This document shows positions 3,636-22,438 of a stretch of 24,000 nt of DNA, one piece after another. Each line of letters starts with the position of its first letter. The first letter of the stretch is position 1. A program made the position numbers and the translations under genes. Origin of the DNA: Kitasatospora hibisci (GTDB lineage Bacteria > Actinomycetota > Actinomycetes > Streptomycetales > Streptomycetaceae); assembly GCF_043950205.1 (NCBI RefSeq), contig NZ_CP171642.1, forward strand, positions 7,356,294 to 7,380,293. The letters are read 5' to 3'. Below the pieces are notes generated by a model that saw only the letters and a list, made by a program, of their open reading frames with translations, was not told the DNA's origin and made no database searches.

Positions 3636-3646
3636 GGGAGGACCGG

Positions 3647-5799: not shown

Positions 5800-5810
5800 G
5801 GAGTCCTTCG

Positions 5811-6746
5811 ATGCACCTGCTCAGCTTCCACACCGGCGGCAGCGACACGCCCCGTCTCGGCGCGCGGAGCGGCGAGCGCGTGGCCGACCTGGCGGCGCTC
5901 GCCGCCGCGGCCGGTGCCGAGCTGCCCGGCGATCTGGCCGCGTTGATCCGGGCCGGCGAACCCGCCCTGTCCACCGCGCGAGCGCTGCTGGCCGGTGCAC
6001 CGGCCGACGCCTGGCTGCCGATCTCCCGGGTCACGCTCCGTGCGCCGCTACGCCCCGGCAAGATCGTCGGAGTCGGCCTCAACTACGTCGAGCACGTCGA
6101 GGAGTCGCACCGCTCGCTCGACACCGAGCGCGAACTGCCGGACCGCCCGGTGCTGTTCGGCAAGCCGGCCACCGCCGTCACCGGCCCCGGCGGGCCGATC
6201 CTGCACAACGCGGACCTGACCAAGCAGCTCGACTGGGAGTGCGAACTGGCCGTGGTGATCGGCCAGGCCGCCCGCCGGGTCACCGAGGCCGAGGCGCTGC
6301 GGCACGTCTTCGGCTACAGCATCGTCAACGACATCAGCGCGCGTGACCAGCGCCGCTCCGGGCAGTGGTTCTTCTCCAAGGGCCAGGACTCCTACTGCCC
6401 GTTCGGACCGGTCGTGGTCACCGCCGACGAGATCCCGGACCCGCAGAACCTCGACCTCTCGCTCAAGGTCAACGGTGTGACCAAACAGGACTCCAACACC
6501 CGCCACATGCTCTTCGGCATCGCCCGGCTGATCGCCGACATCTCCTCCGGCATGACCCTGGAGCCCGGCGACGTCATCGCCACCGGCTCGCCGTCCGGCG
6601 TCGGAGCCGGCCTCGTCCCGCCGCAGTTCCTGCAGCCCGGCGACGTGGTGGAGGCCACGGTCGAGCGGATCGGCACGCTCGCCAACCCGGTCGTCGACGC
6701 CCGCGGCCACGAGGCCCGCGACCACGGCGAACTGGCGGGCGCATGA
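5811..6746 (+). CDS. Fumarylacetoacetate-hydrolase (FAH) family hydrolase; candidate fumarylpyruvate/maleylpyruvate hydrolase
   Basis: In-frame part of track ORF 5340..6746. ATG 5811 is preceded by AAGGAG, which overlaps the upstream TAA. FAH-family blocks: IVGVGLNYVEH, LDWECELAVVIG, VIATGSPSGVG. Confidence 0.85.
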   Translation: MHLLSFHTGGSDTPRLGARSGERVADLAALAAAAGAELPGDLAALIRAGEPALSTARALLAGAPADAWLPISRVTLRAPLRPGKIVGVGLNYVEHVEESHRSLDTERELPDRPVLFGKPATAVTGPGGPILHNADLTKQLDWECELAVVIGQAARRVTEAEALRHVFGYSIVNDISARDQRRSGQWFFSKGQDSYCPFGPVVVTADEIPDPQNLDLSLKVNGVTKQDSNTRHMLFGIARLIADISSGMTLEPGDVIATGSPSGVGAGLVPPQFLQPGDVVEATVERIGTLANPVVDARGHEARDHGELAGA

Positions 6747-7615
6747 CCGCCTACCGGATCGGCCAGATCGTCCCGAGCTCCAACGTCACCATGGAGACCG
6801 AGGTGCCGGCCCTGCTGCGGGCGAGGGAGAGGGTCGCCCCCGAGCGCTTCACCTTCCACTCCAGCCGGATGCGGATGACCAGGGTCACGCCCGAGCAACT
6901 GCGCGCGATGGACGCCGACTCGGACCGCTGCGCGCTCGAACTCTCCGACGCCCGGGTCGACGTGCTCGGCTACGCCTGCCTGGTGGCGGTCATGAGCAAC
7001 GGGCCCGGCTACCACCGGGAGGCCGAGCGGCGGCTGCACCGGCGCACCGCCGAGAACGGCGCACCGGCCCCGGTGGTGACCAGCGCCGGCGCCCTGGTGG
7101 CGGGGCTGCACGTTCTCGGGGCGAAGAAGGTCGTGCTGGTGGCTCCCTACCTGCGGCCGCTCGCCCGGACGGTGGTGGACTACCTGGCGCACGAGGGCAT
7201 CACGGTGACCGACCACGCGGCCCTGGAGATCCCCGACAACCTGGCGGTCGCCGCCCACGACCCGGCCCGGCTTCCCGGGATCGCCGCCCGCCTGGCGCAC
7301 GCCCGGGCGGACGCCGTGGTGCTCTCCGCCTGCGTGCAGATGCCCTCGCTGGCGGCCGTCGAGGAGGCCGAGCAGCGGCTCGGCAAGCCGGTGGTCTCCG
7401 CCGCGATCTGCACCGTCCACCAGCTGCTGCGCGCGCTCGGGCTGCCCGCCTTCGCCCCCGGGGCGGGGGCGCTGCTCTCCGGCGCCTACGCGGGGAGCGA
7501 GTCACCGGTCCCGGGTCCGGCGCCCAGCACACCGCCGTCCCGGCCGCCGGCGGCCGTGCCGCAGCCGCCCGCCGTCCCGCCGTCGGGATCACTTGGCTGC
7601 GCTCCGACAGTATGA
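6743..7615 (+). CDS. maiA: Maleate cis-trans isomerase (Asp/Glu-racemase superfamily) with a Pro-rich C-terminal extension
   Basis: In-frame part of track ORF 6365..7615. ATG 6743 overlaps the upstream stop (ATGA). Motifs: IGQIVPSSNVTMETE, the first catalytic-Cys context LGYACLVAV and the second LSACVQMPS. The last ~45 aa are Pro/Ala/Ser-rich. Confidence 0.8.
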   Translation: MTAYRIGQIVPSSNVTMETEVPALLRARERVAPERFTFHSSRMRMTRVTPEQLRAMDADSDRCALELSDARVDVLGYACLVAVMSNGPGYHREAERRLHRRTAENGAPAPVVTSAGALVAGLHVLGAKKVVLVAPYLRPLARTVVDYLAHEGITVTDHAALEIPDNLAVAAHDPARLPGIAARLAHARADAVVLSACVQMPSLAAVEEAEQRLGKPVVSAAICTVHQLLRALGLPAFAPGAGALLSGAYAGSESPVPGPAPSTPPSRPPAAVPQPPAVPPSGSLGCAPTV

Positions 7616-7684
7616 TCACGCCGGACGGCCGCGGACGCCGGCGCCGCCGCGCGCCCGCGAGGCCACGACGGGAGGAGGGTCGCC

Positions 7685-8590
7685 ATGCCGGAGAACGCGC
7701 CACGCCCCAGCTCCCTGATCCACACGATCTACGGCGAGTTCGTGCGGCGGCTCGGCGGCTGGATCTCGATAGCCGACCTGATCGCGCTGATGGCCGAACT
7801 GGACGTCGACGCACCCGCCGTCCGGTCGGCGATCTCGCGGCTGAAGAAGGCCGGCACCCTGCTGCAGGAGCGGCGCGCGGGCACCGGCTACCGGCTGAGC
7901 CCGGCGATGGGCCCCGTCTTCGACGAGGGCGACCGCCGGATCTTCCACAGCCTGGCGCCCGCCGAGCTCGCCGACGGCTGGGTGGTCGCGGTCTTCTCGG
8001 TCCCCGAGTCGGAGCGGGCCAGCCGCCACCAGCTGCGGTCGCGGCTGGGCTGGCTCGGCTTCGGCAACGCCGCCCCCGGGGTCTGGCTGGCGCCCGCCCG
8101 GGTGCTGCCGGACGCCCGGCGGCTGCTGGAGCGACTCGGGCTGAGCGCGTACGTCCACCTGTTCCTGTCCGAGTACGCGGGTTTCGCCGAACTGCGGTCG
8201 GCGGTCGGATCCTGGTGGGACTTCCCGGCGATCGAGGCGCAGTACGCCGAGTTCACCCAGGTCTGGGGGCAGGTGGCCGCCGGCCTGCGCCCGCACGCGC
8301 ACGCGCCGATCGATCCGGTCGAGGCGTTCCGCGCGTACGTTCCGATGCTCACCCAGTGGCGCCGGCTGCCCTACCTGGACCCGGGGTTGCCGGCGCCGCT
8401 GCTGCCGCCGGAGTGGAACGCCGTAGCGGCCCGCGCGGTCTTCACCGAACTGCACGGTCTGCTCGCCGAACCCGGTCTCCGGCACGTCGAGCAGCTCACC
8501 GGCCTGTCCCGCCGGGCGCTCGACGCCCAGCCCCAGCCGGCGCCGGATCCCCGTCCGTCGGCCCATCCGCCGCCCGACCGGACGCCGTGA
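7685..8590 (+). CDS. PaaX-family transcriptional regulator (aryl-CoA-responsive repressor type)
   Basis: Track ORF. It has an N-terminal winged-helix region (SIADLIALMAELDVDAPAVRSAISRLKKAG). PaaX-like core: WVVAVFSVPESERASRHQLRSRLGWLGFGNAAPGVWLAP. GGAGG lies upstream of the ATG. Confidence 0.8.
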   Translation: MPENAPRPSSLIHTIYGEFVRRLGGWISIADLIALMAELDVDAPAVRSAISRLKKAGTLLQERRAGTGYRLSPAMGPVFDEGDRRIFHSLAPAELADGWVVAVFSVPESERASRHQLRSRLGWLGFGNAAPGVWLAPARVLPDARRLLERLGLSAYVHLFLSEYAGFAELRSAVGSWWDFPAIEAQYAEFTQVWGQVAAGLRPHAHAPIDPVEAFRAYVPMLTQWRRLPYLDPGLPAPLLPPEWNAVAARAVFTELHGLLAEPGLRHVEQLTGLSRRALDAQPQPAPDPRPSAHPPPDRTP

Positions 8591-10220: not shown

Positions 10221-10270
10221 CGGCCGTCCGGCCACGGCCGGGCCGCCGGCGCGCATGCGCTGATCCGCGA

Positions 10271-10292
10271 CTTCATCGGGCTGTCATCGGCC
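10271..10292 (+). promoter_or_regulatory. Copy 1 of a 22-bp element CTTCATCGGGcTGTCATCGGCC (two TCATCGG heptamers, 11-bp register); candidate activator (SARP/OmpR-type) binding site
   Basis: Matches 11179..11200 at 21 of 22 positions. It lies 86 nt upstream of the ATG at 10378. Seven nt after the second heptamer comes CACCGT (A2 and T6 of a -10 retained). Confidence 0.35.
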
Positions 10293-10377
10293 GCTGTCAC
10301 CGTCGTCCGGTGATCTCGGCCGACCGCGTGCCGCACCGGAGAGCGGGCGCGTGGGCCGACTGCGTTGGGAGGAACGA

Positions 10378-11046
10378 ATGCGAGCACGACGGATCGCGGC
10401 CGCGGCAGCCGGAATCCTGCTGACGGTCGGGCTGACAGCGGCACAGGGGGCCACGGCACAGGGGGCCACCGCGCGCGTGACGGCTCCGTGCGAGGGCACC
10501 TACACGATCGTCGTCGGGGGCACCGGCAGCTCGTGGAACAACGACGGGTTCACCGGCAACATCCAGCAGCACGTCGGGTATCCCACCCAGATCCCCAACG
10601 GTGCCAGCACGCGGGCCGGCGTCAACGAGCTGAACCGGCTGGTCCGCGACCAGCGGGCCGCGTGCCCGGGCCAGCACGTCAAGATGGCCGGGTACTCGCT
10701 GGGAGCCGGGGTGGTGCACGTCTGGGTCACCGAGAACTGGCAGACCTTCGACAACGTCAACGCCATCCTCGTCTCGGACCCCAAGCGCCAGGGCCCGCCC
10801 GGGGCCAACGGCGGGGCCGTGCCGTTCGGCGGAATCATCGGGGCTCCGCTCGCCGGTGCCGACAGGTTCTTCGGCAACGTGCCCGTCAAGACGATCTGCC
10901 ACTGGGACTACGTCTGCGACGAGTCCGCCGGCATCTGGACCTACCCGTACAACCACGTCCACAACTACCCCGAAGACTTCAACATGGACCACCACAACGA
11001 CAGTGCCAACGAGGTCTGGTACAACGGCGCCTGGTACCCCGCGTAG
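10378..11046 (+). CDS. Secreted cutinase-like serine hydrolase (divergent)
   Basis: In-frame part of track ORF 10351..11046. ATG 10378 is preceded by GGGAGGAA. Signal peptide MRARRIAAAAAGILLTVGLTAAQG. Cutinase-like layout: Cys near the N-terminus (APCEGTYTIVVGGTGSS), nucleophile elbow ACPGQHVKMAGYSLGAG, VSDPKR, C-terminal ICHWDYVCD..H. Confidence 0.65.
   Translation: MRARRIAAAAAGILLTVGLTAAQGATAQGATARVTAPCEGTYTIVVGGTGSSWNNDGFTGNIQQHVGYPTQIPNGASTRAGVNELNRLVRDQRAACPGQHVKMAGYSLGAGVVHVWVTENWQTFDNVNAILVSDPKRQGPPGANGGAVPFGGIIGAPLAGADRFFGNVPVKTICHWDYVCDESAGIWTYPYNHVHNYPEDFNMDHHNDSANEVWYNGAWYPA
10441..10470 (+). repeat. 15-bp tandem duplication (gcacagggggccacg x2, last base differs) encoding QGATA-QGATA at the signal-peptide/mature junction
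   Basis: Read directly from the sequence; in frame within the cutinase-like CDS. Confidence 0.8.
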
Positions 11047-11090
11047 GCAGTGAACGCCCGTCGGCCGGGCCCGTGGCCGCAGTCCTGCAC

Positions 11091-11130
11091 CGCCTGTCGA
11101 CGGCCGGGAACGTCCGGCCGCCGACAGGCG
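11091..11130 (+). terminator. Stem-loop, candidate intrinsic terminator after the cutinase-like gene
   Basis: Arms are CGCCTGTCGACGGCCGG and CCGGCCGCCGACAGGCG (17 nt, one mismatch) with loop GAACGT, 45 nt after the stop. There is no T-tract, which is common in high-GC actinomycetes. Confidence 0.5.
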
Positions 11131-11178
11131 GTGAGCCGTTTCCGCCGCCGTGCAGCTCTGCCGCCCCGGGGTGCGACG

Positions 11179-11200
11179 CTTCATCGGGATGTCATCGGCC
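11179..11200 (+). promoter_or_regulatory. Copy 2 of the 22-bp element CTTCATCGGGaTGTCATCGGCC; candidate activator binding site plus promoter
   Basis: Heptamers TCATCGG lie at 11181-11187 and 11192-11198. Seven nt downstream is TAGCCT (TAnnnT -10-like, 11206-11211). The ATG of the acylase gene is at 11259. Confidence 0.35.
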
Positions 11201-11258
11201 CTCCCTAGCCTGGCCGTGTTCAGTCAAACGACCGGACCGCAGGGGGAAGGACGACTCG

Positions 11259-13739
11259 ATGGCACGGAGCAGACTCGAAGCGAGGCTGCCGATCGCGGTC
11301 ATGGCCGCGATGGCACTGATGAGCACGGTGGCGGCGGCCGGGACACCGGCCGCCGGGGGCCCGGCCGCCGTACGGGGGCCGGCGCCGGACCGGCCGACGA
11401 TCCGGTACACCGAGTACGGGATCCCGCACATCATCGCCTCGACCCTGGAGGGCCTGGGCGAGGGGTACGGATACGCGGCGGCCAAGGACAACATCTGCAC
11501 CCTGGCCGACACCTACCTGATGGTCAGCGCCCAGCGGTCCCGCTACCTGGGGGCCGACGGCAGGGCGAGCCCCGGCCAGAACCAGAACAGCACCAGCAAT
11601 CTCAACAGCGACCTGTACTTCCAGCGGATGAACGACGACCGGGTGGTGGAGCGACTGCTCGACCAGCCCGCCCCCAACGGGCCGGAGCCGGAGGTCAAGG
11701 AGGCCATCCGCGGCTATGTCCGGGGGTACAACAGGTACCTGGCCGAGACCGGCGTGAACAACCTCTCCGACCCGGCCTGCCGGGGCGCGGCCTGGGTGCG
11801 GCCGATCACCGAGCTGGACGTCTACCGGCACGCGCACGCCGAGATCATCATGGGCAGCGCCGATCCGCTGCTGGACGGCGAGGTGAACGCCGCGCCCCCG
11901 GGAGCCGCCGCCGCGCCGTCCGCCGCCGCGCCGGCGGTCTCCCCGGAGGAGACCGCGGCGAAGATCCGCGAGGCCATGGCCGCGAGCCGGCAACAGGGCA
12001 GCATGGGCAGCAACGCCCTGGCGGTCGGGTCGCAGGGCCTGGCCGCGGGCACCGGCACCAGCATGCTGCTGGCCAACCCGCACTTCCCGTGGCAGGGCAA
12101 GAACCGGATGTGGCAGAGCCAGCTGACGATCCCGGGGAAGATGAACGTCTCCGGGGCCAGCCTGCTCGGACTCCCCGCGGTGAACATCGGGCACACCGAC
12201 GACGTCGCCTGGAGTCACACCGTCGCCACGGTCGCCCCGTTCGGGCTGTTCGACGTGCAGGTGGACCCGCTGCACCCGACCAACTACCTGGTGGACGGCG
12301 CCTGGCAGCAGATGACCTCGCAGCAGGTCGGCGTCGACGTGCTGAATCCGGACGGCTCCCTCGGCAGGGTCACCAGGACGCTGTGGTCCACCCGCTACGG
12401 TCCGGTCACCACCTCCGTGCTCGGCGTCGCGCTGCCCTGGGTGGTGAGTGCGCACGCGGTGCGCGACGCGAACATGGACAACCTGCGGGCCCTGAACACC
12501 TGGTTCCACCTCGACCAGGCCAAGGACGTCGACGACGTGGTGAGCACGCTGGAGACCACGCAGGGCGTGCCGTTCTTCAACACCGTCGCCTCCGACCGCA
12601 AGGGCAACGCGCTGTACGCGGACATCCAGGCCGCCCCGAACATCACCGACGCGCACGCGCAGTCCTGCCTCACCCTGACCGGCCAGGTGCTGTTCAACCA
12701 GCAACTGCGGCTGCCCAACGTGCCGCCGGTCTCCGTCTTCGACGGCAAGCGCAGCGAGTGCGACTGGCCGGACGACCCGAATGCCGTCGCACCGGGACTG
12801 CTGGACCCGCACAAGCAGCCGCGCCTGATCCGGTCCGACTTCGTGGGCAACGCCAACGACAGCGCCTGGCTGGCCAACCCCGAGCAGCCGCTGTCCTTTC
12901 CCCGGGTGATGGGCGACACCGCGGCGCCCCGCTCGCTGCGCACCCAGGAGCTGATCCTGACCGCGCAGAACCGGATCAGCGGCAGCGACGGCCTGCCTGG
13001 CCGGGGTTTCACCCCGGAGGCCATGCGGCAGTTGCTGTTCGCCGACAACAGCAGGGCGGCCGACCTGGCCCTCAACGCCACGGTGAGCATGTGCCGCAGC
13101 CAGCCCTTCGGGCTCGTCCTGGTGGACGGCAACCTGGTCAACGTGAGCGAGGCCTGCCCGATCCTGGCCGCCTGGAACCACAAGTACACCGCGGACAGCC
13201 GAGGGTCCTGGCTGTTCGAGAACTTCTGGTACCTCCTGACCAACGGCCAGGCGATCGAGAAGCTGCCGTGGCGGGTTCCCTTCGACCCCAAGGACCCCGT
13301 GCACACGCCCAACTCGCTGGACCCCGGGAGCTCCGCCGTCCGTGACGCGCTCGGCCGGGCGGTCCTCGCGCTGCGCAACGCGGGCGTTCCGCTGAACGCG
13401 CCGCTGTCGGACGTCCAGAAGATCACCCGCAACGCCGAGCAGATCCCGATCCACGGGGCGATCCACGAAATGGGCGTGCTGAACGTGGTCACTCCCGGAA
13501 CGGTCGACGGAAGGCTGGACATCACCTTCGGCTCCAGCTTCGTCCAGGAGACGCGGTTCACCGCCGACGGCCCGCCGCAGGCCGCCTCGCTGCTGGCCTA
13601 CTCCCAGTCCGCCGACCCGAACTCGCCGCACCACTCGGACCAGACCAAGCTGTTCTCGGCCGGCCAGTGGGTGACCGAACGCTACACCGAGGAGCAGATC
13701 GCGGCCTCACCGGCGCTGGAGATCAAGGTCCTGGACTGA
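11259..13739 (+). CDS. Secreted penicillin-acylase-family Ntn hydrolase (AHL acylase / aculeacin A acylase-like)
   Basis: In-frame part of track ORF 10365..13739. ATG 11259 is preceded by GGGGGAAGGA, and there is a signal peptide. Motifs: TEYGIPHI, the autoprocessing/nucleophile context GSMG-SNALAVGS, and LLANPHFPWQG. ~826 aa. Confidence 0.85.
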   Translation: MARSRLEARLPIAVMAAMALMSTVAAAGTPAAGGPAAVRGPAPDRPTIRYTEYGIPHIIASTLEGLGEGYGYAAAKDNICTLADTYLMVSAQRSRYLGADGRASPGQNQNSTSNLNSDLYFQRMNDDRVVERLLDQPAPNGPEPEVKEAIRGYVRGYNRYLAETGVNNLSDPACRGAAWVRPITELDVYRHAHAEIIMGSADPLLDGEVNAAPPGAAAAPSAAAPAVSPEETAAKIREAMAASRQQGSMGSNALAVGSQGLAAGTGTSMLLANPHFPWQGKNRMWQSQLTIPGKMNVSGASLLGLPAVNIGHTDDVAWSHTVATVAPFGLFDVQVDPLHPTNYLVDGAWQQMTSQQVGVDVLNPDGSLGRVTRTLWSTRYGPVTTSVLGVALPWVVSAHAVRDANMDNLRALNTWFHLDQAKDVDDVVSTLETTQGVPFFNTVASDRKGNALYADIQAAPNITDAHAQSCLTLTGQVLFNQQLRLPNVPPVSVFDGKRSECDWPDDPNAVAPGLLDPHKQPRLIRSDFVGNANDSAWLANPEQPLSFPRVMGDTAAPRSLRTQELILTAQNRISGSDGLPGRGFTPEAMRQLLFADNSRAADLALNATVSMCRSQPFGLVLVDGNLVNVSEACPILAAWNHKYTADSRGSWLFENFWYLLTNGQAIEKLPWRVPFDPKDPVHTPNSLDPGSSAVRDALGRAVLALRNAGVPLNAPLSDVQKITRNAEQIPIHGAIHEMGVLNVVTPGTVDGRLDITFGSSFVQETRFTADGPPQAASLLAYSQSADPNSPHHSDQTKLFSAGQWVTERYTEEQIAASPALEIKVLD

Positions 13740-13783
13740 TGCTCTCGCTCCGCGCAACGACGACACCGACGAGAGGGAACACC

Positions 13784-14866
13784 GTGACGAGGACATGGAG
13801 CCGGTGGCGCATGGTGGTGGCCCTGCTGGCCGCCGTCCTGGCGACGGCCACGACGGCGGGTACGGCACGGGCCGCCGGCGGCACCGGGGCGCCGCCGCCG
13901 ATGGCGAACGGGTTCGGCCTGACCCAGGTCGAACCCGCCGTGGGCGGTCCGACCAACTTCTACCTCACCGTGACCACTCCCGAGGTCACGGGCCGGCACC
14001 ACATCAAGATCATCCTGCCGGGCGGGTACTACGACGACCCGACCAGGCGCTACCCCGTGCTGTACTTCCTGCACGGCTCACCCGACGACCCCGTCCAGCA
14101 GAACTACCCGGCGCTGACCATGTCCGACTCGATGATCACCGTCATCCCGGACGGCGGTGCCCGGGGCTGGTACGCCAACTGGCTCGACCAGAACACCCTG
14201 CTCGGAGCCCAGAACTGGGAGAACTTCCACCTCCGGCAGGTGGTCCCGTTCATCGACGCGAACCTGCGGACCGTCGCCGCCAAGAAGGCCAGGGCCGTCG
14301 CGGGCGTCTCGATGGGCGGCTTCGGGGCCCTCCACTACGCCCAGGACCACCCCGAGCTGTTCAGCCAGACCGCGTCACTGTCGGGAGACATCGATCTGTC
14401 GGCCGACTCCATGGACCTGCGGCTGGCCGTCGTCGCCTCCCTCATCGACGCACAGGGCGCGCTCTGCGGCTCGTCCTCCGGATTCTGCGGCGACCCCGCG
14501 AACGACCCGTACAAGCCCGGCGTGGACAGCGACGCCCTGTTCGGCTCGCCCTACCCGGTCTTCAACGTGGACTGGCGGTGGAACGCGGCCGACCCGTCCC
14601 AGCACATGGACAAACTCGCCGGAGTCGGGGTCTCCATCTACGTGGGCAACGGACGCGGCGTGCCGACCGACCTGGAGTTCTGGCTCGAAGGCGCGTCCAA
14701 GCACGTCAAGGACCGGATGGACGCCCTGGGCATGTCCTACCACTACGTCGACTACGGCGACGGCTCCGGCTGGGGCACCCAGTGCAACGGCGGCCACAAC
14801 GCCGGCTGCTGGGAACAGGACCTCCGGGACCTGATCCCCCGGCTCGAACGGGCCTTCGCTTCCTGA
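13784..14866 (+). CDS. Secreted alpha/beta-hydrolase esterase (esterase D / mycolyltransferase-like family)
   Basis: In-frame part of track ORF 13667..14866. GTG 13784 is preceded by GAGAGGGAA; ATG 13739 is an alternative start. Signal peptide WRMVVALLAAVLATATTAGTARA. Motifs YPVLYFLHG and GVSMGGFGAL (GxSxG). Confidence 0.75.
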   Translation: MTRTWSRWRMVVALLAAVLATATTAGTARAAGGTGAPPPMANGFGLTQVEPAVGGPTNFYLTVTTPEVTGRHHIKIILPGGYYDDPTRRYPVLYFLHGSPDDPVQQNYPALTMSDSMITVIPDGGARGWYANWLDQNTLLGAQNWENFHLRQVVPFIDANLRTVAAKKARAVAGVSMGGFGALHYAQDHPELFSQTASLSGDIDLSADSMDLRLAVVASLIDAQGALCGSSSGFCGDPANDPYKPGVDSDALFGSPYPVFNVDWRWNAADPSQHMDKLAGVGVSIYVGNGRGVPTDLEFWLEGASKHVKDRMDALGMSYHYVDYGDGSGWGTQCNGGHNAGCWEQDLRDLIPRLERAFAS

Positions 14867-14904: not shown

Positions 14905-15975
14905 TCACCGCGTGGCTGCGGTCAGGCCCGGGCCGACCTCGTCCCCGCTCAGGATCAGCCGGTGCGTCTGCCGCAGCAGCCGACTCGGCGCGACCCCCAG
15001 GTCGTCGGCCAGCCGGCGGCGGGCGCGGTCGAACACGGTCAGCGCCTCGGCCTGTCGGCCACTCCGGTACAGCGCACGCATCAGCATCGCGGCCACCGGC
15101 TCGTTCAGGGGGTGCTCCGCAGCCAGGGCGAACAGCTCGGCGGTCGCCTCGGCGCACCGGCCCAGTCGCAGCTGCCACTCCAGCTTCCGCTGGGTGACGG
15201 CGATCCTGCGCTCGGCGAGCCGCAGCCGCTCCAACTCGGCCAGCGGGCCGGGCAGCCCGGCGAGGAGCTCGCCGCGGAACAGGTCCAGGGCCCGGGCACA
15301 GAGGCGGACCGCCTCGGTCGGGTCGCCCGCCCGATGGGCGGCCCCGGCTTCGGTGACCAGGCGCTCCATGCGCGCCAGGTCCACCTCGACCGCACCCGGT
15401 ACCAGCCGGTAGCCGCACCGGGCGTGCTCGATCACCGAGTCCGGGCTGTCCCCGATGCGCAGGGTCTTGCGGAGGCGGTAGATGTGGACCGGTACCACGT
15501 TCGTGACCGGCTGGTCCGACCCCCAGACGCCGTCCAGCAGTTCCTGCTGGCTGACGGTCCGCCCCGCGTGCAGCGCCAGTGCTGCCAGCACGGCTTGCTG
15601 GCGCAGGTGCCCCAGGTCCAGGGACCGCCCGCCCCACCGGGCCTGCAGCGGTCCGAGTACGGAGATCTGCACCTTCGGCCCGGCCGCCGGGCCGGCGGTG
15701 CTGCGCGGAACCGGGCCCGCCGCCTGTGAGCGGGGGCCGCAGCCGGGGGAGACCACTCCGCAGTCGAAGGCGTGGACGATGGCGGCGGCGCGGTCGCGCA
15801 GCCCGAGCTTCCCGAGGATCCGCGCGACGTGCCCGGCCACGGCCTCCTCGGAGATCGCGAGGGCGGTGGCGATCTCGTCGTCCCGCAGGCCGCAGCCGAC
15901 CGCGTGGAGCACGTCGCGCTCGTGGGGACCGAGCGCGGCGGCGTTCGGCCGGCGGGTGGTGGCGGTCGTCGGCAT
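14905..15975 (-). CDS. Transcriptional regulator: N-terminal LuxR/GerE-type HTH fused to a SARP module (OmpR-type winged helix + BTAD)
   Basis: In-frame part of track ORF 14905..16752. ATG at 15975 is preceded by GGGAG. LuxR HTH: ERDVLHAVGCGLRDDEIATALAISEEAVAGHVARILGKLGLRDRAAA. SARP: ISVLGPLQARWGGRSLDLG..RQQAVLAALAL..IYRLRKTL..GYRL. The BTAD region follows (DLARMERL..LRLAERRI..MRALYRSGRQAEALTVFDRARRRLADDLGVAPS). Confidence 0.8.
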   Translation of the reverse strand: MPTTATTRRPNAAALGPHERDVLHAVGCGLRDDEIATALAISEEAVAGHVARILGKLGLRDRAAAIVHAFDCGVVSPGCGPRSQAAGPVPRSTAGPAAGPKVQISVLGPLQARWGGRSLDLGHLRQQAVLAALALHAGRTVSQQELLDGVWGSDQPVTNVVPVHIYRLRKTLRIGDSPDSVIEHARCGYRLVPGAVEVDLARMERLVTEAGAAHRAGDPTEAVRLCARALDLFRGELLAGLPGPLAELERLRLAERRIAVTQRKLEWQLRLGRCAEATAELFALAAEHPLNEPVAAMLMRALYRSGRQAEALTVFDRARRRLADDLGVAPSRLLRQTHRLILSGDEVGPGLTAATR

Positions 15976-16123: not shown

Positions 16124-17485
16124 TCAGGGGCAGTGGACGAGGGCGGGGTGGTCCTTGGTGCGGACGGCGGGGAGCCAGGCGGTGGTGGGGCCGGGGAGGT
16201 GGACGCGGTACCAGAGGGTGGAGGAGCGGTCCTCTTCGTCGATGACGGGGAGGCCGGTGGGGAGTTGGCAGTCGGCGTCGAGGAGGTCGTCGTGCCAGAC
16301 GCGGGTGGGAACGACGTTCTCGGCGGTGTAGGGGCGAAGGGGGTCGACGGCGAGGCCGAGGCTGCACCGGGGGTCGCGGTCGGCGCGGTCCTGGCAGCTG
16401 CGTTCGGCGTTGAAGACCCTGATGCGGGTGGGGTGTTCGGCCGGGCCGGAGTGCGGCCGCAACACGGCGACGGCGACCGCGGCCGCGGCGCAGGCGGCGA
16501 GGGCGAGCACGACGGTGCGCGGTCGGGGGTGACGGGTGCGGCGGCCGGACCGGTGGGCGCGGATCCGGGCGAGCAGGCTCTCGGCGGTGTACGGGGCGCG
16601 GGCGGCGTGGGTGGGGGCGAGGCAGTCGGCGGCGAGGGCGCGCCAGAACGGGGGGACCTCGGGGGCCAGTCGCAGCGCGGCGCGGCCCTGGGCGTACTGC
16701 TGGGCGGCGGCGCTGCGGGCGGTGGGGGTGGCGCCGGGGAAGGGCGGGACACCGGCGGCGAACACCTCGTGGATCACGATGCCGAGCGCCCAGATGTCGG
16801 CGGTGGGACGGATCTTGACGCCGTGTTCGCCGAGCGGCTCCCTCCAGCGCTCCGGCGGGAGGTAGTCGGGGGTGCCCATGGGGGCGGAGTGGCCGTGGGT
16901 GCCGGTGAGTTCGATGGCGAGGCCGAAGTCGGAGAGGCGGACCTCGCCGTCCTCGGCGATGAGGACGTTCTCTGGCTTGAGGTCGGTGTGGACCCAGCCG
17001 GAGCGGTGCAGGTGGGCCAGGCCCTCGCAGATGCCGGCGATGATCCGGGCGCCCCGGTCCTCGTCGACGCCGGTGGCGAGCAGGTCGCGCAGCGTGCCCC
17101 GGGCCCGTTCCATCACCAGGACGGTCGCGCCGTCGAGCGCGGGGTGGCCGGGGGAGTCCAGGGCGAGGGTGTCGAGCAGGCGGACCAGCCGAGGGTGCGG
17201 GGCGGTGCGGGCCAACTCGGCCTCGCGGCGCGCGGCGTCGGCGACCTGGCGGGCCTGGCGGGGGGCGAGTCCGGCGGTCGGCAGCACCTTGAGGGCCACG
17301 GTGTCGTCCACGCCGGCCGTGTTGTCCGAGCCGTCGGCACGAGTGGTGTCCTCGGCCCGGCGGGCGGCGTAGACGGTGGCCCATCCCCCTTCGCCGATCG
17401 GCTCGGTGACGATCCAGTCGCCGATCCGGTGGCCGGCGGGCAGCAGTTCCTGTCCGGACCCGCGGAAGGCCGGAACGTGCACCAT
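16124..17485 (-). CDS. Membrane Ser/Thr protein kinase (Hanks type, non-RD) with a Cys-containing extracytoplasmic C-terminal domain
   Basis: Track ORF. Motifs: IGEGGWATVY, VALKVL, HTDLKPENVLI (Thr instead of Arg before the catalytic Asp), SDFGLA, GTPDYLPPE. TM segment VVLALAACAAAAVAVAVL, then ~110 aa with 4 Cys. Confidence 0.85.
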   Translation of the reverse strand: MVHVPAFRGSGQELLPAGHRIGDWIVTEPIGEGGWATVYAARRAEDTTRADGSDNTAGVDDTVALKVLPTAGLAPRQARQVADAARREAELARTAPHPRLVRLLDTLALDSPGHPALDGATVLVMERARGTLRDLLATGVDEDRGARIIAGICEGLAHLHRSGWVHTDLKPENVLIAEDGEVRLSDFGLAIELTGTHGHSAPMGTPDYLPPERWREPLGEHGVKIRPTADIWALGIVIHEVFAAGVPPFPGATPTARSAAAQQYAQGRAALRLAPEVPPFWRALAADCLAPTHAARAPYTAESLLARIRAHRSGRRTRHPRPRTVVLALAACAAAAVAVAVLRPHSGPAEHPTRIRVFNAERSCQDRADRDPRCSLGLAVDPLRPYTAENVVPTRVWHDDLLDADCQLPTGLPVIDEEDRSSTLWYRVHLPGPTTAWLPAVRTKDHPALVHCP

Positions 17486-17492
17486 CGGGCCC

Positions 17493-18260
17493 CTACCCCC
17501 GGGGCCCGGCGGCTTCGGGGCGCGGCAGGAGTGCCAGGTGCTCCTCGCGAACGATGCCGAACTTCAGGGCGAGTCCCACGACGGCCTCGCGCTTGCCGCT
17601 GCGGCGGTCCGCGCGGCCCGCGTCGTCGGGCAGGTCGATGCGGAGCTTCTCGTCGGCGAGGTAGTCGAGGTGCGAACTGACCGCGCGGGCGGTGAGCCGG
17701 GCGCAGACGGGGTGGTCGCGCAGCCGCGCGACCACCTGGGGGGTGGTGGGCACGGCGGCGGGGGAGCGGTCACGCAGCCACGGCTCGCAGAGCGCGACCA
17801 GGACCAGGAAGTAGGTGGCGGTCTCGTCCAGCGAGTACGCCGTCATGGTGCGGCTCTCCCAGGAGCCGCCACCGCGGGCCTGCGGGTCCAGGTAGACGTG
17901 GTCGGGCGCGAACACCTGGAAGGACAGCGGCGTCTCACGCCGTGAGGGCAGCACCACGCGGGAGAACTCGAACGGGATCGGCGCGCCGATGCGCCGTGGC
18001 GGCACCCGCAGGTACTCGCCGGCGCCCTCCGGGTTCTCCACCAGATAGGCGTGGGTGCTGCTGAGGTTGCTCAACTGCCAGTGGTCGTCGGTCGCGTGGA
18101 TCTCGCCGGCGAGGCGGGAGACCGTCTCGTCGCCGAGTCGGAGCTCCACCGGCGTGCCGGCGGAGCCGCGGCCGAAGCGCACCCGCTCCCCCGGACCGAG
18201 CCGCAAGGTCACCGCGTCCTCGCCGTTCCCCTCCGGCAGGTGGACGAGAATCCCGCTCAC
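17493..18260 (-). CDS. FHA-like domain protein (N-terminal FHA-like, C-terminal unknown/possibly helical)
   Basis: Track ORF with a GTG start preceded by GGAGG. FHA-like pattern: VRFGRGS..VSRLAGEI..LSNLSSTHAYLVEN. Its stop is 7 nt before the kinase ATG, so the two are probably coupled. Confidence 0.6.
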   Translation of the reverse strand: MSGILVHLPEGNGEDAVTLRLGPGERVRFGRGSAGTPVELRLGDETVSRLAGEIHATDDHWQLSNLSSTHAYLVENPEGAGEYLRVPPRRIGAPIPFEFSRVVLPSRRETPLSFQVFAPDHVYLDPQARGGGSWESRTMTAYSLDETATYFLVLVALCEPWLRDRSPAAVPTTPQVVARLRDHPVCARLTARAVSSHLDYLADEKLRIDLPDDAGRADRRSGKREAVVGLALKFGIVREEHLALLPRPEAAGPRG

Positions 18261-18477
18261 CGTTCCTCCGTCCCGCGCACCGCTTCCCCGTTCGCCTGCC
18301 GATCGTTGTCGGACGGACGGAACGTTACCTCCTTGGGCATGACAATAAACCGTATGGTGGCGCAGGCCACGCGACGGTGAAGCAGGGGAACGCGCGTGCG
18401 GAGGGTCAGCGCATCGGCGCCCTCGGGTGCGGCAACGGCGCCGGCCGGCCGCCGCCCACGGCGGTACGGCCCGCGAG

Positions 18478-18522
18478 CGGGAGCACGCGTGCTCCCGCTC
18501 CGGCAGCCCGCAGCGGGCTGTG
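18478..18522 (-). terminator. Two adjacent GC-rich hairpins downstream of the lytic gene pair
   Basis: Palindrome GGGAGCACGCGTGCTCCC (about 18479-18496) and CAGCCCGC-a-GCGGGCTG (18504-18520) lie 45-90 nt after the stop at 18568. No T-tract. Confidence 0.4.
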
Positions 18523-18567
18523 CCCGCTGATCGGGGACATCGTCGCCCTCCAGGAGTTCCGGTGCGG

Positions 18568-19574
18568 TCAGGGGACGGCGGGTCCGGCGGTGGTGTTCAG
18601 CCAGGTCCAGTCGGACCAGGTGGAGAATCCGGTCTGCCACTTGTGGTGGACGCCGGCGCTGCTGGTGCCGAAGACCTCGATCCGGCCGTCGGCGTTGGCG
18701 GTGGCGACGGTCTCGGTGCCGGCGCCGCCGAAGGTGTCCCACGGGCCGTAGGGCGCGTTGACGCCGGTCTGCCAGGTGTGCTGCGCGGTGCTGCCGTTGA
18801 TGGCGAACACCTCCACCCGCCCGTCGGGCGAACGCTCACTGGTGAGTTGGGAGTCGGCGGGTCCGCCGGCGGGTTCCCAGTCGGACCAGGTGGTGGGGTT
18901 GGTCTGGTACTTGTGGAAGACGCCTGCGGGTCCGGAGGCGAGGACTTCGAGGCGGCCGTCCTGGTTGTGGTCGACGGTGAGGTCGTGGCCGCCGCCGCCG
19001 AAGGTCTCCCAGGTGGACCAGGCGCCGTTGACGGCGGTCTGCCATTGGTGTTGGAAGGTGGTGGTGTTGAGGGCGAAGACTTCGAGGCGGCCGTCGGGGG
19101 CCTTGCCGAGTGAGATGCGGCTGTCGGCGGGGCCGCCGCCGGCGGGTTCCCAGTCGGACCAGCCGCTGTTGGGTGCGGTCTGGTACTTGTGGAAGATGCC
19201 GGCGGGTCCGGAGGCGAAGACTTCGAGGCGGCCGTCCTGGTTGGAGCCGGCGGCGATGGAGTGGCCGCCGCCGCCGAAGGTCTCCCAGTCGGACCAGGTG
19301 CCGGAGGGCTGGAGCTGGTAGCGGTGCTGGAAGGTGGTGCCGTTGATGGCGAACATCTCCAGGCGGCCGTCGGGGTTCGGGCCGATCGCCAACTCGGCGC
19401 CGCCGGGGCCGCCCAGGGGTTCCCAGTCCGACCAGGCACCGCTCACGGCGGTCTGCCAGGCGTGCGAGACGCCGTCGGCACCGGCTGCGAACACCTCCAG
19501 CCGGCCGTCCGCCGAACGCGCCGACACCACCTTCCCGGACTGCGCCGGATACACCAACGGCGCCGGTCCGGGCT
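18568..19574 (-). repeat. Copy 1 of a ~1.0 kb direct repeat (propeller-coding module); internally 7 blade repeats with a ~276-bp two-blade periodicity
   Basis: Aligns with 20049..21055 at a constant offset of 1481 bp. Several track ORFs in other frames recur with the same offset, for example 19110..19346 vs 20591..20827 and 19189.. vs 20670... Confidence 0.9.
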
Positions 19575-20037
19575 CGTGGTGGCCGTGCCGGTCCGCGGCG
19601 GCGCGCGCCGCGTCCAGGTACCGCAGGTGGGCACCCGCGTTGTAGGTCGACCAGGGCTGCCAGTTGGTGCCGCCGTTGGAGATGCGGAAGGTCTCGTCGG
19701 CGTTGCACTGGGCGTCGTAGGCGCAGGCGTCGGTGACCTCGGGATGCCAGTAGTCGTTGATCTCCCACAGGCCGCGGTCGGTGGACGGCGGGGTGTTGTT
19801 CTGGACGTTGGACGCCAGCGGGTTGCAGCTGGACTCGGCCATGCCGACGGCGATCGCGGTCACCAGGGCGTCGCCCCGGAACCCCGCGTTGTAGCCGACC
19901 TCGGCGCACAGGTCGATGCCGGTGGCGGCCGGTGCGGGCGTGGCGCCGACCACCAGGCCCGCCGCCACGCCCAGTGCGGCGCATGCGGACAGCAGGACCC
20001 GGTGGGACGCCCGGCGGGCAGGTTGTGTGCTGGTCAC
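18568..20037 (-). CDS. Secreted lysozyme/SLT-like glycosidase fused to a 7-bladed Trp-rich (lectin-like) beta-propeller
   Basis: In-frame C-terminal part of track ORF 18568..21300. GTG at 20037 has GAGGAG 7 nt upstream. Signal peptide RRASHRVLLSACAALGVAAGLVVGATPAPA. Catalytic-domain motifs AIAVGMAESSCNP and STDRGLWEINDYWHPE (about nt 19588-19917). Seven ~45-aa repeats DGR[LIV]EVF..H.[WY]Q..WS.WE..GG follow (nt 18571-19566). Confidence 0.85.
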   Translation of the reverse strand: MTSTQPARRASHRVLLSACAALGVAAGLVVGATPAPAATGIDLCAEVGYNAGFRGDALVTAIAVGMAESSCNPLASNVQNNTPPSTDRGLWEINDYWHPEVTDACAYDAQCNADETFRISNGGTNWQPWSTYNAGAHLRYLDAARAAADRHGHHEPGPAPLVYPAQSGKVVSARSADGRLEVFAAGADGVSHAWQTAVSGAWSDWEPLGGPGGAELAIGPNPDGRLEMFAINGTTFQHRYQLQPSGTWSDWETFGGGGHSIAAGSNQDGRLEVFASGPAGIFHKYQTAPNSGWSDWEPAGGGPADSRISLGKAPDGRLEVFALNTTTFQHQWQTAVNGAWSTWETFGGGGHDLTVDHNQDGRLEVLASGPAGVFHKYQTNPTTWSDWEPAGGPADSQLTSERSPDGRVEVFAINGSTAQHTWQTGVNAPYGPWDTFGGAGTETVATANADGRIEVFGTSSAGVHHKWQTGFSTWSDWTWLNTTAGPAVP

Positions 20038-20048
20038 GTGGTCGCTCC

Positions 20049-21055
20049 TCAACTGACGGCGGGTCCGGCGGTGGTGTTCAGCCAGGTCCAGTCGGACCAG
20101 GTGGAGAATCCGGTCTGCCACTTGTGGTGGACGCCGGCGCTGCTGGTGCCGAAGACCTCGATCCGGCCGTCGGCGTTGGCGGTGGCGATGATCTCGGTGC
20201 CGGCGCCGCCGAAGGTGTCCCACGGGCCGTAGGGGGCGTTCAGGTTGGTCTGCCAGGTGTGCTGCGCGGTGCTGCCGTTGATGGCGAACACCTCCACGCG
20301 GCCGTCCGCGGTGGGCTGGCTGGTGAGTTGGGAGTCGGCGGGTCCGCCGGCGGGTTCCCAGTCGGACCAGGTGGTGGGGTTGGTCTGGTACTTGTGGAAG
20401 ACGCCTGCGGGTCCGGAGGCGAGGACTTCGAGGCGGCCGTCCTGGTTGTGGTCGACGGTGAGGTCGTGGCCGCCGCCGCCGAAGGTCTCCCAGGTGGACC
20501 AGGCGCCGTTGACGGCGGTCTGCCATTGGTGTTGGAAGGTGGTGGTGTTGAGGGCGAAGACTTCGAGGCGGCCGTCGGGGGCCTTGCCGAGTGAGATGCG
20601 GCTGTCGGCGGGGCCGCCGCCGGCGGGTTCCCAGTCGGACCAGCCGCTGTTGGGTGCGGTCTGGTACTTGTGGAAGATGCCGGCGGGTCCGGAGGCGAAG
20701 ACTTCGAGGCGGCCGTCCTGGTTGGAGCCGGCGGCGATGGAGTGGCCGCCGCCGCCGAAGGTCTCCCAGTCGGACCAGGTGCCGGAGGGCTGGAGCTGGT
20801 AGCGGTGCTGGAAGGTGGTGCCGTTGATGGCGAACATCTCCAGGCGGCCGTCGGGGTTCGGGCCGATCGCCAACTCGGCGCCGCCGGGGCCGCCCAGGGG
20901 TTCCCAGTCCGACCAGGCACCGCTCACGGCGGTCTGCCAGGCGTGCGAGACGCCGTCGGCACCGGCCGCGAACACCTCCAGCCGGCCGTCCGCCGAACGC
21001 GCCGACACCACCTTCCCGGACTGCGCCGGATACACCAACGGGGCGGGGCGCGGAC
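20049..21055 (-). repeat. Copy 2 of the ~1.0 kb direct repeat (propeller-coding module)
   Basis: See copy 1. Similarity ends at about 21052-21055, just upstream of the shared PAPLVYPAQSGK linker. Confidence 0.9.
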
Positions 21056-21581
21056 CGGTTCCCGGGGTGCAGGGCATGGTGATCCCGCGCTCCGCCAGGT
21101 AGGGGATCGGGTCGGTACGCACGGTCGCGTCCGGGTCGGCCCAGACCCGCAGGTGCAGGTGCGGCCCGCTGGAGGTGCCCTCGCTGCCCATCTGCGCGAT
21201 CGGCTGACCGGCCGTCACGTGGTCGCCGGTGGCGACGTCCCGCTCGCGCATGTGCCCGTACTCGGTGATGGTCCCGTCCGGGTGCAGGATGCGGATCCAC
21301 TGGCCGTAGCCCTGCGCCGCGCCGGAGACCAGTACCCGGCCGTCGCCGACCGCGTAGATCGGGGTGCCGTAGTCGTTGGCGATGTCGATGCCGTTGTGCT
21401 CCGGGGTGTAGCCCTGGGAGATGTAGCCGGCCGCCGGGCAGGACGCCGCGAATCCGTCGGCCGCTGCAGGGGTGGCCGAGGCGGGGGCGGCCGGCAGGGT
21501 GACCGGCAGCAGCAGGGTGACCGCGGCCATGGCCAGGCGCGCGGCCCGGCGGGAGGTGCGACGGGTGAAGGAGGGGAACAC
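20049..21581 (-). CDS. Secreted M23 (LytM/lysostaphin-type) metallo-endopeptidase fused to the same 7-bladed propeller
   Basis: In-frame C-terminal part of track ORF 20049..22328. GTG at 21581 is preceded by GAGGGG; ATG 21530 is a less likely alternative because it lacks a charged n-region. Signal peptide TRRTSRRAARLAMAAVTLLLPVTLPAAPASA. M23 motifs HNGIDIA, PIYAVGDGRV, TEYGHM and GPHLHLRV (about nt 21096-21428). The 332-aa propeller occupies nt 20052-21047. Confidence 0.85.
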   Translation of the reverse strand: MFPSFTRRTSRRAARLAMAAVTLLLPVTLPAAPASATPAAADGFAASCPAAGYISQGYTPEHNGIDIANDYGTPIYAVGDGRVLVSGAAQGYGQWIRILHPDGTITEYGHMRERDVATGDHVTAGQPIAQMGSEGTSSGPHLHLRVWADPDATVRTDPIPYLAERGITMPCTPGTGPRPAPLVYPAQSGKVVSARSADGRLEVFAAGADGVSHAWQTAVSGAWSDWEPLGGPGGAELAIGPNPDGRLEMFAINGTTFQHRYQLQPSGTWSDWETFGGGGHSIAAGSNQDGRLEVFASGPAGIFHKYQTAPNSGWSDWEPAGGGPADSRISLGKAPDGRLEVFALNTTTFQHQWQTAVNGAWSTWETFGGGGHDLTVDHNQDGRLEVLASGPAGVFHKYQTNPTTWSDWEPAGGPADSQLTSQPTADGRVEVFAINGSTAQHTWQTNLNAPYGPWDTFGGAGTEIIATANADGRIEVFGTSSAGVHHKWQTGFSTWSDWTWLNTTAGPAVS

Positions 21582-22018
21582 CGGGCCGCCCCTCACGCCT
21601 TGCACGGACGGCCGACGGTGCCGCCGGGCGCCGACGGGCCCGCGGCGCCCGGTTCCGGTGCGGCGACGAACCCGCCGGGGGAGTTCGGGACGCTGCTGCG
21701 GGTGGGGTGGTGCGCGGTCAACGTGACCTCCTGCGGGCGTGACGGCCACCTGTCCGGACCGCCGGGGAGTGGGGCGGTTGGGACGGTAGCCACGCACCGC
21801 ACGGCACAGAACCCGGAACCATCCGGACTGACAGGGGCTCACCGGCCGAGGAGACTGTCGTCCTCCGGACGGGGCTGTGCAGGGCACGCCGGACGGCGGC
21901 GGGAATGCGTGGTCGGCACATGCGTGGTCAGCAGGAGTCGACGGACCGGCCCCGCCCCGGCAGAGGCGGGCCTGAACGGCCGGGGACCCGTAGGGCGGGG
22001 TCAGCCGCCCGCCGGGGG

Positions 22019-22438
22019 TCAGCGCCGTGCGGCGGCCTTGTCCAGGTCGGCGGTGAACCTTGCGAACTCCTTCCGCCAAGCGAGGCGAACGTTCATCCGG
22101 GTGGGTTCGTCGTGCCCGGGGAGGGCGAACGGGAAGGAGCTCCAGAGCAGTCGGCGGCGGACCGTGCCCATCCGGCGGGCCGTTTCGTCCCGGTCGAAGC
22201 TGTAGACGAGGTCGCCCGGCCGCTGCCCTATGCCCCTGGTCTTGACCTGGTGGAAGTGGACGGACCGCGCGGTCGCGGTGACGAAGTAGGTGTCGGCGTC
22301 GAGGCCGCCGCCGAGGCAGGAGAGCCATGGGCTGTCGTCGAGGAACACGCCGAAGACGGTGAGCGGGGGATCGGTCGGATCCATCTCAAGCACCGTCTGC
22401 TCGACCTGCTTGATCGTGGCGTCCTTGCGCACTGCCAT
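22019..22438 (-). CDS. Small cytoplasmic protein of unknown function (139 aa)
   Basis: In-frame part of track ORF 22019..22720. ATG at 22438 has GGGAGG 8 nt upstream. The composition is protein-like (MAVRKDATIKQVEQTVLEMDP..), unlike the Pro/Arg/Gly-rich upstream extension. No signal peptide and no motif I can name. Confidence 0.5.
   Translation of the reverse strand: MAVRKDATIKQVEQTVLEMDPTDPPLTVFGVFLDDSPWLSCLGGGLDADTYFVTATARSVHFHQVKTRGIGQRPGDLVYSFDRDETARRMGTVRRRLLWSSFPFALPGHDEPTRMNVRLAWRKEFARFTADLDKAAARR

Follow-up and report, generated by a model that had tools for sequence, protein, structure and literature searches.

A tandem pair of predicted cell-wall hydrolases in Kitasatospora hibisci shares a PLL-type propeller that may direct both enzymes to one surface

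Bacteriolysins such as lysostaphin, ALE-1 and zoocin A combine a secreted M23 peptidase, in which the HxxxD and HxH motifs are intact, with a C-terminal module expected to bind the cell wall. In this group, the targeting module is an SH3b domain or a TRD. Members of the PLL family of lectins bind L-fucose and O-methylated sugars, at sites between the blades of a propeller (PMC5584973; PMC12203525). The Photorhabdus members PLL, PLL2-5 and PHL (PropLec7A) are built of seven blades of about 47 amino acids (aa) and occur as stand-alone proteins in a Gram-negative insect pathogen. Propeller lectins are also found in the Streptomyces umbrella toxins, where the beta-propeller lectins of UmbA recognise the teichuronic acid-wall teichoic acid of other actinomycetes (PMC13274773). 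Here, we describe two adjacent genes of Kitasatospora hibisci, B and A, that encode an M23 peptidase and a lysozyme-like enzyme, both ending in the same 332-aa PLL-type propeller. The genes lie within a stretch of 24,000 nucleotides (nt) of contig NZ_CP171642.1 (positions 7,356,294 to 7,380,293), referred to below as the window, which has the GC content of high-GC actinomycete DNA (70-78%). The features of the pair are given below in window coordinates, each with its basis.

20049..21581, minus strand: gene B, predicted secreted M23 metalloendopeptidase with PLL-type propeller, 510 aa (translation, Pfam, PDB match)
21474..21581, minus strand: putative signal peptide of B, about aa 1-36 (RR in the n-region, hydrophobic core, ASA before the likely cut)
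21135..21401, minus strand: M23 catalytic domain of B, HNGIDIA ... YGHM ... GPHLHL (Pfam, PDB alignment)
20052..21047, minus strand: propeller of B, aa 179-510, seven blades (97.8% nt identity to the propeller of A, blade dissection)
20038..20050, minus strand: B-A junction, 11-nt spacer with GAGGAG over the TGA of B (sequence)
18568..20037, minus strand: gene A, predicted secreted lysozyme-like (SLT_3) enzyme with PLL-type propeller, 489 aa (translation, Pfam, AlphaFold2)
19645..19902, minus strand: lysozyme-like catalytic domain of A, with invariant E68, D87 and four invariant Cys (ortholog alignment, profile comparisons)
18571..19566, minus strand: propeller of A, aa 158-489, seven blades (phmmer, Foldseek, model confidence about 90)
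About 18835-18850 and 20316-20331, minus strand: leading loops of blade 6 (cross-species comparison)
18475..18529, minus strand: two GC-rich hairpins just 3' of the stop of A (sequence, RNA fold z -2.3)

The pair resembles the lysostaphin group in its working principle and is not a member of it. The targeting module of gene B is a 332-aa PLL-type propeller instead of an SH3b domain or a TRD, the locus is chromosomal and lacks a FemABX-like immunity gene, and the peptidase is paired with a predicted muramidase that bears the same module. Compared with UmbA, which contains a trypsin-like domain and assembles with UmbB and UmbC, proteins A and B have no trypsin domain and unrelated neighbours. 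Furthermore, the UmbA4 propeller has six blades against seven here, and the payload in A and B would be the fused hydrolase itself. A review of M23 peptidases and a review of wall hydrolases (PMC6403190) list no propeller or lectin module among the partner domains. Likewise, literature searches on PF26607, PF18896, PLL-like fusions and M23 with lectin in Streptomyces returned no characterisation, which agrees with the original prediction, made from the letters of the window, that no characterised system has this layout.

The propellers of A and B differ at 22 of about 993 nt (97.8% identity) and at 9 of 332 aa, as expected from the shared C-terminal module first proposed. The differences cluster 141-271 nt from the 3' end, and one run of 647 nt is free of them. 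Each propeller was dissected into seven blades of 45-47 aa with the motifs DGR[LVI]E, [WY]Q and WSxW. Two blade subtypes alternate, with A[AS]G..G..H..Q in blades 1, 3, 5 and 7 and A[IL]N..T.QH..Q in blades 2, 4 and 6. This alternation matches the output of Tandem Repeats Finder, in which a one-blade period of 135 nt (64-68% matches) is accompanied by a stronger two-blade period of 276 nt (79-80%). An assembly artefact was considered as the source of the duplicated propeller and was excluded by the 22 differing positions, the unlike N-terminal domains and the presence of the arrangement in more than 60 genomes.

A phmmer search of the PDB with the propeller retrieved PLL2 (E 9e-58) and PLL (E 1e-44), and PHL and PLL3 were also matched. 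The AlphaFold2 model of full-length protein A had a mean predicted local distance difference test score (pLDDT) of 80, with about 90 over the propeller, which was modelled as seven four-stranded units. When this model was searched with Foldseek, the top 22 structures all belonged to the PLL family, with template modelling scores of 0.80-0.85 and 34-36% identity over about 340 columns; they were followed by an E-value gap of 11 orders of magnitude. The lectin models of NCBIfam matched the propeller below their own cut-offs only, and homologues are precomputed as PF26607 (Beta-prop_PLL). By sequence and predicted fold, membership of the PLL/PropLec7A family is unambiguous, and the closed seven-bladed, lectin-type propeller suggested beforehand is borne out at that level.

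In PHL, the hydrophobic sugar site is formed by Thr, Trp and Trp, and the polar site by Arg, Glu, Trp, Gln and Trp (PMC5584973). The polar-site residues, namely Arg and Glu of DGRxE, W/Y-Q and the first Trp of WSxW, are retained in nearly every blade of A and B. Sugar binding by the propeller appears likely. The same blade motifs are shared with the Photorhabdus lectins, whereas the hydrophobic-site Trp is mostly Phe in the window and the blades alternate between two subtypes. The context also differs, since here the propeller is the C-terminal module of an enzyme in a Gram-positive actinomycete. Compared with the stand-alone lectins characterised from Photorhabdus, such an enzyme-borne propeller in a Gram-positive bacterium is new.

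To place this similarity in an evolutionary context, the propellers of both genes were compared in 60 species genomes (n=120 propellers). For 91 of the 120, the nearest nucleotide neighbour was the paralogue in the same genome. The distance between the A and B propellers within a genome ranged from 0.1% to 18%, with 2.1% in the window. Homogenisation peaks over blades 1-5, and in one Streptomyces subclade the propellers group by gene type, where conversion has apparently stopped. At about 20 differences per 900 nt, the clean run of 647 nt is not expected by chance and therefore points to a recent conversion tract. These patterns suggest that recurrent gene conversion keeps the propellers of A and B alike. 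The loop that leads into blade 6, before DGR, is gene-specific across species, with SERSP in the lysozyme gene and SQPTA in the M23 gene, and may contact the catalytic domain or the linker. Median identity was 0.79 and 0.78 for the propellers, 0.81 for SLT_3 and 0.73 for M23.

Several related loci deviate from the tandem layout. In L015 (Kitasatospora sp. NPDC053057), the M23 gene is gone and the remaining lysozyme-propeller protein, P0001, has a B-like signal peptide, a state that looks like a deletion by recombination between the paralogous genes. In L075, an M23 domain without its own propeller lies just upstream of the SLT_3 domain and may be fused to it. Additionally, the short-read assemblies of L005, L006, L007, L038 and L045, which are the closest relatives, break at the near-identical repeat; their contigs are 1-1.6 kb long and stop within the propeller. 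Owing to these breaks, the pair is probably under-counted in draft genomes.

Residues 61-149 of protein B match Pfam Peptidase_M23 (E 4.6e-30; 104.1 bits against a cut-off of 28.7). The best solved relative of the domain is StM23 (PDB 9GY1), which aligned with aa 46-166 of B at E 2e-36; lysostaphin (6e-14) and LytM (6e-10) followed in the same search. HNGID, YGHM and HLH align with StM23, and the HxxxD motif, the catalytic His and the HxH motif are all intact, unlike in the degenerate activators EnvC and NlpD, where the zinc and catalytic motifs are not. Gene B is thus confirmed, as far as these motifs can tell, as an intact M23 zinc endopeptidase, for which cross-link cleavage is predicted. 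StM23 lyses Listeria and Bacillus, with peptidoglycan of the meso-diaminopimelate type, and its potency rises once a wall-targeting domain is fused to its C-terminus (PMC12052989). The solved and characterised StM23 construct is the catalytic domain alone, to which the authors added a targeting module, whereas in gene B the module is natural. The 9GY1 entry is reported from 'Streptococcus thermophilus' NCTC10353, and such closeness to an actinomycete enzyme is unexpected for a Firmicute protein.

Residues 46-131 of protein A match Pfam SLT_3, 'lysozyme like' (E 5e-34; 117.1 bits against a cut-off of 27). In an alignment of 15 orthologues, Glu68, Asp87 and four Cys of this domain were invariant. 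A profile of the domain found C-type lysozymes as its sole solved relatives in the PDB (E about 1e-3), and its hhalign comparison with hen and human lysozyme gave a probability of 90.8% over 46 columns, in which Glu35 and Asp52 of lysozyme were aligned with E68 and D87. The catalytic region is alike in both (AESS...STDRGLWEIN in A, FESN...STDYGILQIN in lysozyme), but the Cys pattern differs from that of the C-type (GH22) enzymes, the significance is marginal to moderate, and Pfam files the domain as SLT_3. The domain-only AlphaFold2 model was of low confidence (pLDDT 63.6; 44-86 for the domain inside the full-length model) and gave no meaningful Foldseek match; the profile comparisons were relied on for this reason. 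In these comparisons, gene A is closer to the muramidases of the GH22 type than to the SLT lytic transglycosylases, with predicted cleavage of the glycan strand. Of the initial 'lysozyme/SLT-like' label, the lysozyme-like part holds, with SLT_3 as the matching family, and the SLT affinity gives way to a closest relation with the C-type enzymes. The SLT_3 domain is 98% identical to that of Kitasatospora sp. A2-31 and 96% identical to that of K. aburaviensis.

Both reading frames were recovered on the minus strand at the positions first assigned to them, with a GC content at third codon positions of 0.93-0.94, and they contain the quoted motifs: HNGIDIA and GPHLHL in B, and GMAESSCNP and STDRGLWEINDYW in A. 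Gene A starts with GTG, and the GAGGAG seven nt ahead of it overlaps the TGA stop of B, so that the 11-nt gap and the overlapping ribosome-binding site described earlier can be read directly. The B-A spacing is equally tight in relatives such as L001 and L002. Judging from this spacing and overlap, B and A are probably co-transcribed and translationally coupled. The hairpins 3' of gene A, with stems of 8 bp and about 11-13 bp and no T-tract behind them, probably mark the end of the B-A transcript. A scan of the window for consensus promoters and terminators gave no match, including no T-tract terminator, as expected at 72-75% GC. An Rfam scan of the whole window also gave no match, with no ydaO-type or other riboswitch ahead of gene B. 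Upstream of B, a non-coding stretch of 437 nt (21582-22018), without an Rfam match, is followed by an open reading frame (ORF) of 139 aa (22019-22438, minus strand) that has no family match and was found in no related locus.

The N-terminus of each protein shows an arginine pair followed by a hydrophobic stretch, and the RR in both n-regions had been pointed out previously. Export by the twin-arginine translocation (Tat) system, proposed on that basis, found no support, as neither N-terminus matched the Tat profiles PF10518 (Pfam TAT_signal) and TIGR01409. The GH43-propeller proteins of relatives do match TAT_signal (E 7.5e-5 and 8e-4). Furthermore, the four invariant Cys in the lysozyme domain of A suggest folding outside the cell. 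Sec export of both proteins is the better guess, given the lack of a TAT_signal match and the conserved Cys in A.

About 2,000 homologues were retrieved. Fusions of M23 with the propeller are common in Streptomyces and Kitasatospora, where they are labelled 'peptidoglycan DD-metalloendopeptidase family protein' with PF26607, and fusions with SLT_3 are rarer. Other fusion partners in actinomycetes include Amidase_2, GH25, Phage_lysozyme2, a second lysozyme-like domain and, weakly, NlpC/P60, which brings the wall hydrolases fused to the propeller to at least six kinds. PLL-type fusions are already annotated in databases in hundreds, and no characterisation of them was found in the literature. 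In the plasmid collection, the only propellers were distant ones (<50% identity) on other enzymes, which indicates that the cassette described below is not plasmid-borne there.

When one genome per species was scanned for the SLT_3 domain, 260 matches were obtained among 185,579 species genomes, and 80 loci were mapped; the denominators 72 and 69 used below are the loci with enough DNA. In 64 of 72 loci, the gene immediately upstream of the SLT_3-propeller gene encodes an M23-propeller protein, so the paired arrangement, for which a survey of homologues had been proposed, is conserved. A GH43-propeller gene comes next in 53 of 69 loci, and 63 of 69 encode U255 and a membrane Ser/Thr kinase downstream of the hydrolases. 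The neighbouring genes in the window are as follows.

17493..18260, minus strand: U255, 255-aa cytoplasmic protein with a divergent FHA-like N-terminus (weak Pfam match to Yop-YscD_cpl, an FHA fold, E 0.004)
16124..17485, minus strand: membrane Ser/Thr kinase with one transmembrane segment, partner of U255 (Pfam Pkinase, E 8e-37)
14905..15975, minus strand: LuxR-HTH + OmpR-type + BTAD (SARP-like) regulator by the kinase (Pfam; conserved in the Kitasatospora group)
10264..14866, plus strand: cutinase-like protein, PvdQ-like Ntn acylase and PF00756 esterase, predicted secreted hydrolases (Pfam, NCBIfam, synteny)

Within the cassette, U255 shows the highest conservation, and its family comprises more than 1,300 clusters. 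Its homologues are named 'FHA domain-containing' in some sources and are often mis-named 'serine/threonine protein kinase'; a comparison of U255 with the PDB gave no match. The kinase is always paired with U255; its ectodomain, about 110 aa long and with four Cys, has no family match. PADLOC returned generic kinase matches only and no defence-system assignment. In genomes without SLT_3, U255 and the kinase still stand behind the M23-propeller gene, a different lysozyme-like-propeller gene and the GH43-propeller gene. A 27-codon ORF (18257-18340, minus strand), whose stop overlaps the GTG start of U255 (GTGA), was rejected as a peptide gene, as its DNA is conserved in Kitasatospora loci but its frame changes; a conserved 5' leader is the more likely explanation.

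The Kitasatospora group nearest the window has lost the GH43 gene and otherwise shows the exact order of the window, including the regulator, esterase, acylase and cutinase-like gene. The propeller of the GH43 proteins is clearly more divergent than those of A and B. Partial losses of the cassette without replacement were observed in L003, L011, L015, L022, L076 and L078. The whole block is also present in Actinocorallia, a member of a different family, with identities near those of Streptomyces-Kitasatospora comparisons, which suggests transfer of the cassette as a unit. The acylase, with E 1e-170 to the PvdQ model, scores below the cut-off of that model. The acylase, esterase and cutinase-like trio stands beside the cassette in Kitasatospora relatives, and the acylase and esterase also do so in Actinocorallia and some Streptomyces; their tie to the A-B pair is read as an association only. 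Separate from the hydrolase pair, window positions 1-8590 (plus strand) hold an aromatic-acid catabolic cluster. It comprises an AMP-ligase/thioesterase gene cut by the window edge, an FAD and old-yellow-enzyme hydroxylase, a CN-hydrolase, a bicupin dioxygenase, an FAA hydrolase, an Amdase/maleate-isomerase-like protein and a PaaX-type regulator.

Taken as a working scheme, B and A would be co-expressed and exported by Sec as peptidoglycan hydrolases. B, a zinc M23 endopeptidase, would cut the peptide cross-links, and A, a GH22-like muramidase, would cut the glycan strand. A short Pro-rich linker would join each enzyme to the same PLL-family propeller, which would act as a multivalent binder of cell-wall glycan and gather both activities on one surface. 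Combined cutting of strand and cross-link would dissolve the sacculus faster than one cut, and gene conversion would hold the propellers, and hence their specificities, alike. The pair would form the core of a conserved accessory cassette together with the GH43-propeller gene (in most relatives), the FHA-like protein and the kinase. The scheme rests on the domain identities, the intact catalytic residues, the PLL fold, the conserved cassette and the concerted evolution, all of which are shown by the comparisons above, whereas we infer sugar binding, the identity of the ligand, the secretion route, the target organism and the synergy. There is support for lectin-type targeting of the wall, which fits the shared propeller, the conserved pairing and the gene conversion, with wall binding as a prediction; among close relatives of the propeller, peptidoglycan hydrolases predominate as fusion partners, which also speaks for targeting of the wall.

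As to what the pair is for, we give a probability of roughly 0.55 to extracellular lysis of the walls of other bacteria, living or dead, rather than a role in the producer's own growth. The patchy and apparently mobile cassette and its neighbouring genes for secreted hydrolases, including the PvdQ-type acylase, argue for foreign or dead walls. By analogy, so do the bacteriolytic activity of StM23, the closest solved M23 domain, and the use of propeller lectins by Streptomyces to aim toxins. Several observations weigh against this use. No immunity family of the FemABX, Lif, Epr or Zif type was found among the ORFs of the window or in related loci. The accelerated propeller evolution that would be the signature of an arms race was not seen in comparison with the catalytic domains, and the propeller matched nothing in 50,697 phage records, where no actinophage endolysin carries it. 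Being linked to a kinase and an FHA protein is also a common trait of systems for envelope and morphogenesis control. Since GH43 enzymes do not hydrolyse peptidoglycan, the common target may be a wall polysaccharide or non-bacterial. Finally, the first Trp of the hydrophobic sugar site is replaced by Phe in four blades and by Ser, Ala or His in the rest, and the Thr varies, so the ligand is not transferable from PLL. The original prediction had joined a shared targeting module to a role as a weapon: the module is upheld by the PLL lectin propeller, the conserved pairing and the conversion, and its observation that no FemABX-type gene is present holds for all ORFs of the window. The weapon role fares worse, with no immunity gene and a propeller that is not diversifying faster than the catalytic domains.

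A role of A and B as autolysins is doubtful, though it is the alternative to be taken most seriously. In that role, they would reshape the wall of the producer itself at germination, branching or septation or as spores mature, the propeller would retain them on the glycopolymers of that wall, and the kinase and FHA-like protein would control them. Such a role would account for the near-universal linkage of U255 and the kinase (63 of 69 loci), with U255 as the most conserved protein, for a conserved propeller that fits a stable self ligand, and for the missing immunity gene; autolysins of modular build that bear wall-binding repeats are also common (PMC6403190). However, the cassette is missing in most Streptomycetaceae species (260 matches in 185,579 species genomes), where a core growth function would be expected to be more universal, it was apparently transferred to Actinocorallia and partially lost elsewhere without replacement, and its neighbours are secreted enzymes of scavenging or antagonism. 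It is quite unlikely, in our view, that the hydrolases (with GH43 in most species) serve a 'lyse-and-sense' pathway, in which they would shave off wall fragments that the kinase ectodomain detects, with a signal passing through U255 (and, in Kitasatospora, the SARP-type regulator) to a response such as antibiotic production. Such a pathway would be distinct from the PASTA kinases, and the walls could be neighbouring ones or the producer's own. The PknH-EmbR pair of mycobacteria would be a loose analogue.

A very unlikely alternative is that the propeller is a general carbohydrate-binding module for scavenging, with fungal, nematode or plant glycans or microbial necromass, instead of living bacteria, as substrates and A acting on chitin-type chains together with GH43, esterase and cutinase. 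The GH43-propeller gene in 53 of 69 loci, the CE1-type esterase and cutinase-like neighbours, and the distant PLL-like propellers on enzymes that do not act on walls (matrixin protease, PIG-L deacetylase) are consistent with it, as is the preference of PLL lectins for sugars typical of fungi and nematodes, namely fucose and O-methylated ones (PMC6943638). Set against this, M23 peptidases are peptidoglycan specialists, and the close propeller relatives are fused mostly to peptidoglycan hydrolases, with the propeller of GH43 being the more divergent one. Hardly credible is a propeller that binds no sugar and serves as a protein-protein scaffold, an inhibitory pro-domain or a spacer, its near-identity being a neutral by-product of conversion. 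Conversion alone can account for the homogeneity, and the canonical fucose-site Trp is partly replaced, but homology to proven lectins is strong across all seven blades, the polar-site residues are conserved, and the C-terminal recurrence on many wall hydrolases is the usual pattern of a wall-binding domain.

Modular peptidoglycan hydrolases are tools of bacterial growth and competition and templates for enzybiotics, and their host range is set by the wall-binding module. If the propeller of A and B binds a defined wall glycan, it would constitute a new class of targeting domain. The PLL lectins would also gain a physiological function beyond insect pathogens, and there would be a reason why the two adjacent propellers are kept alike by conversion. 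The linkage to U255 and the kinase may offer an entry to the regulation of secreted lytic enzymes in Streptomyces and its relatives, or to the response to their products.

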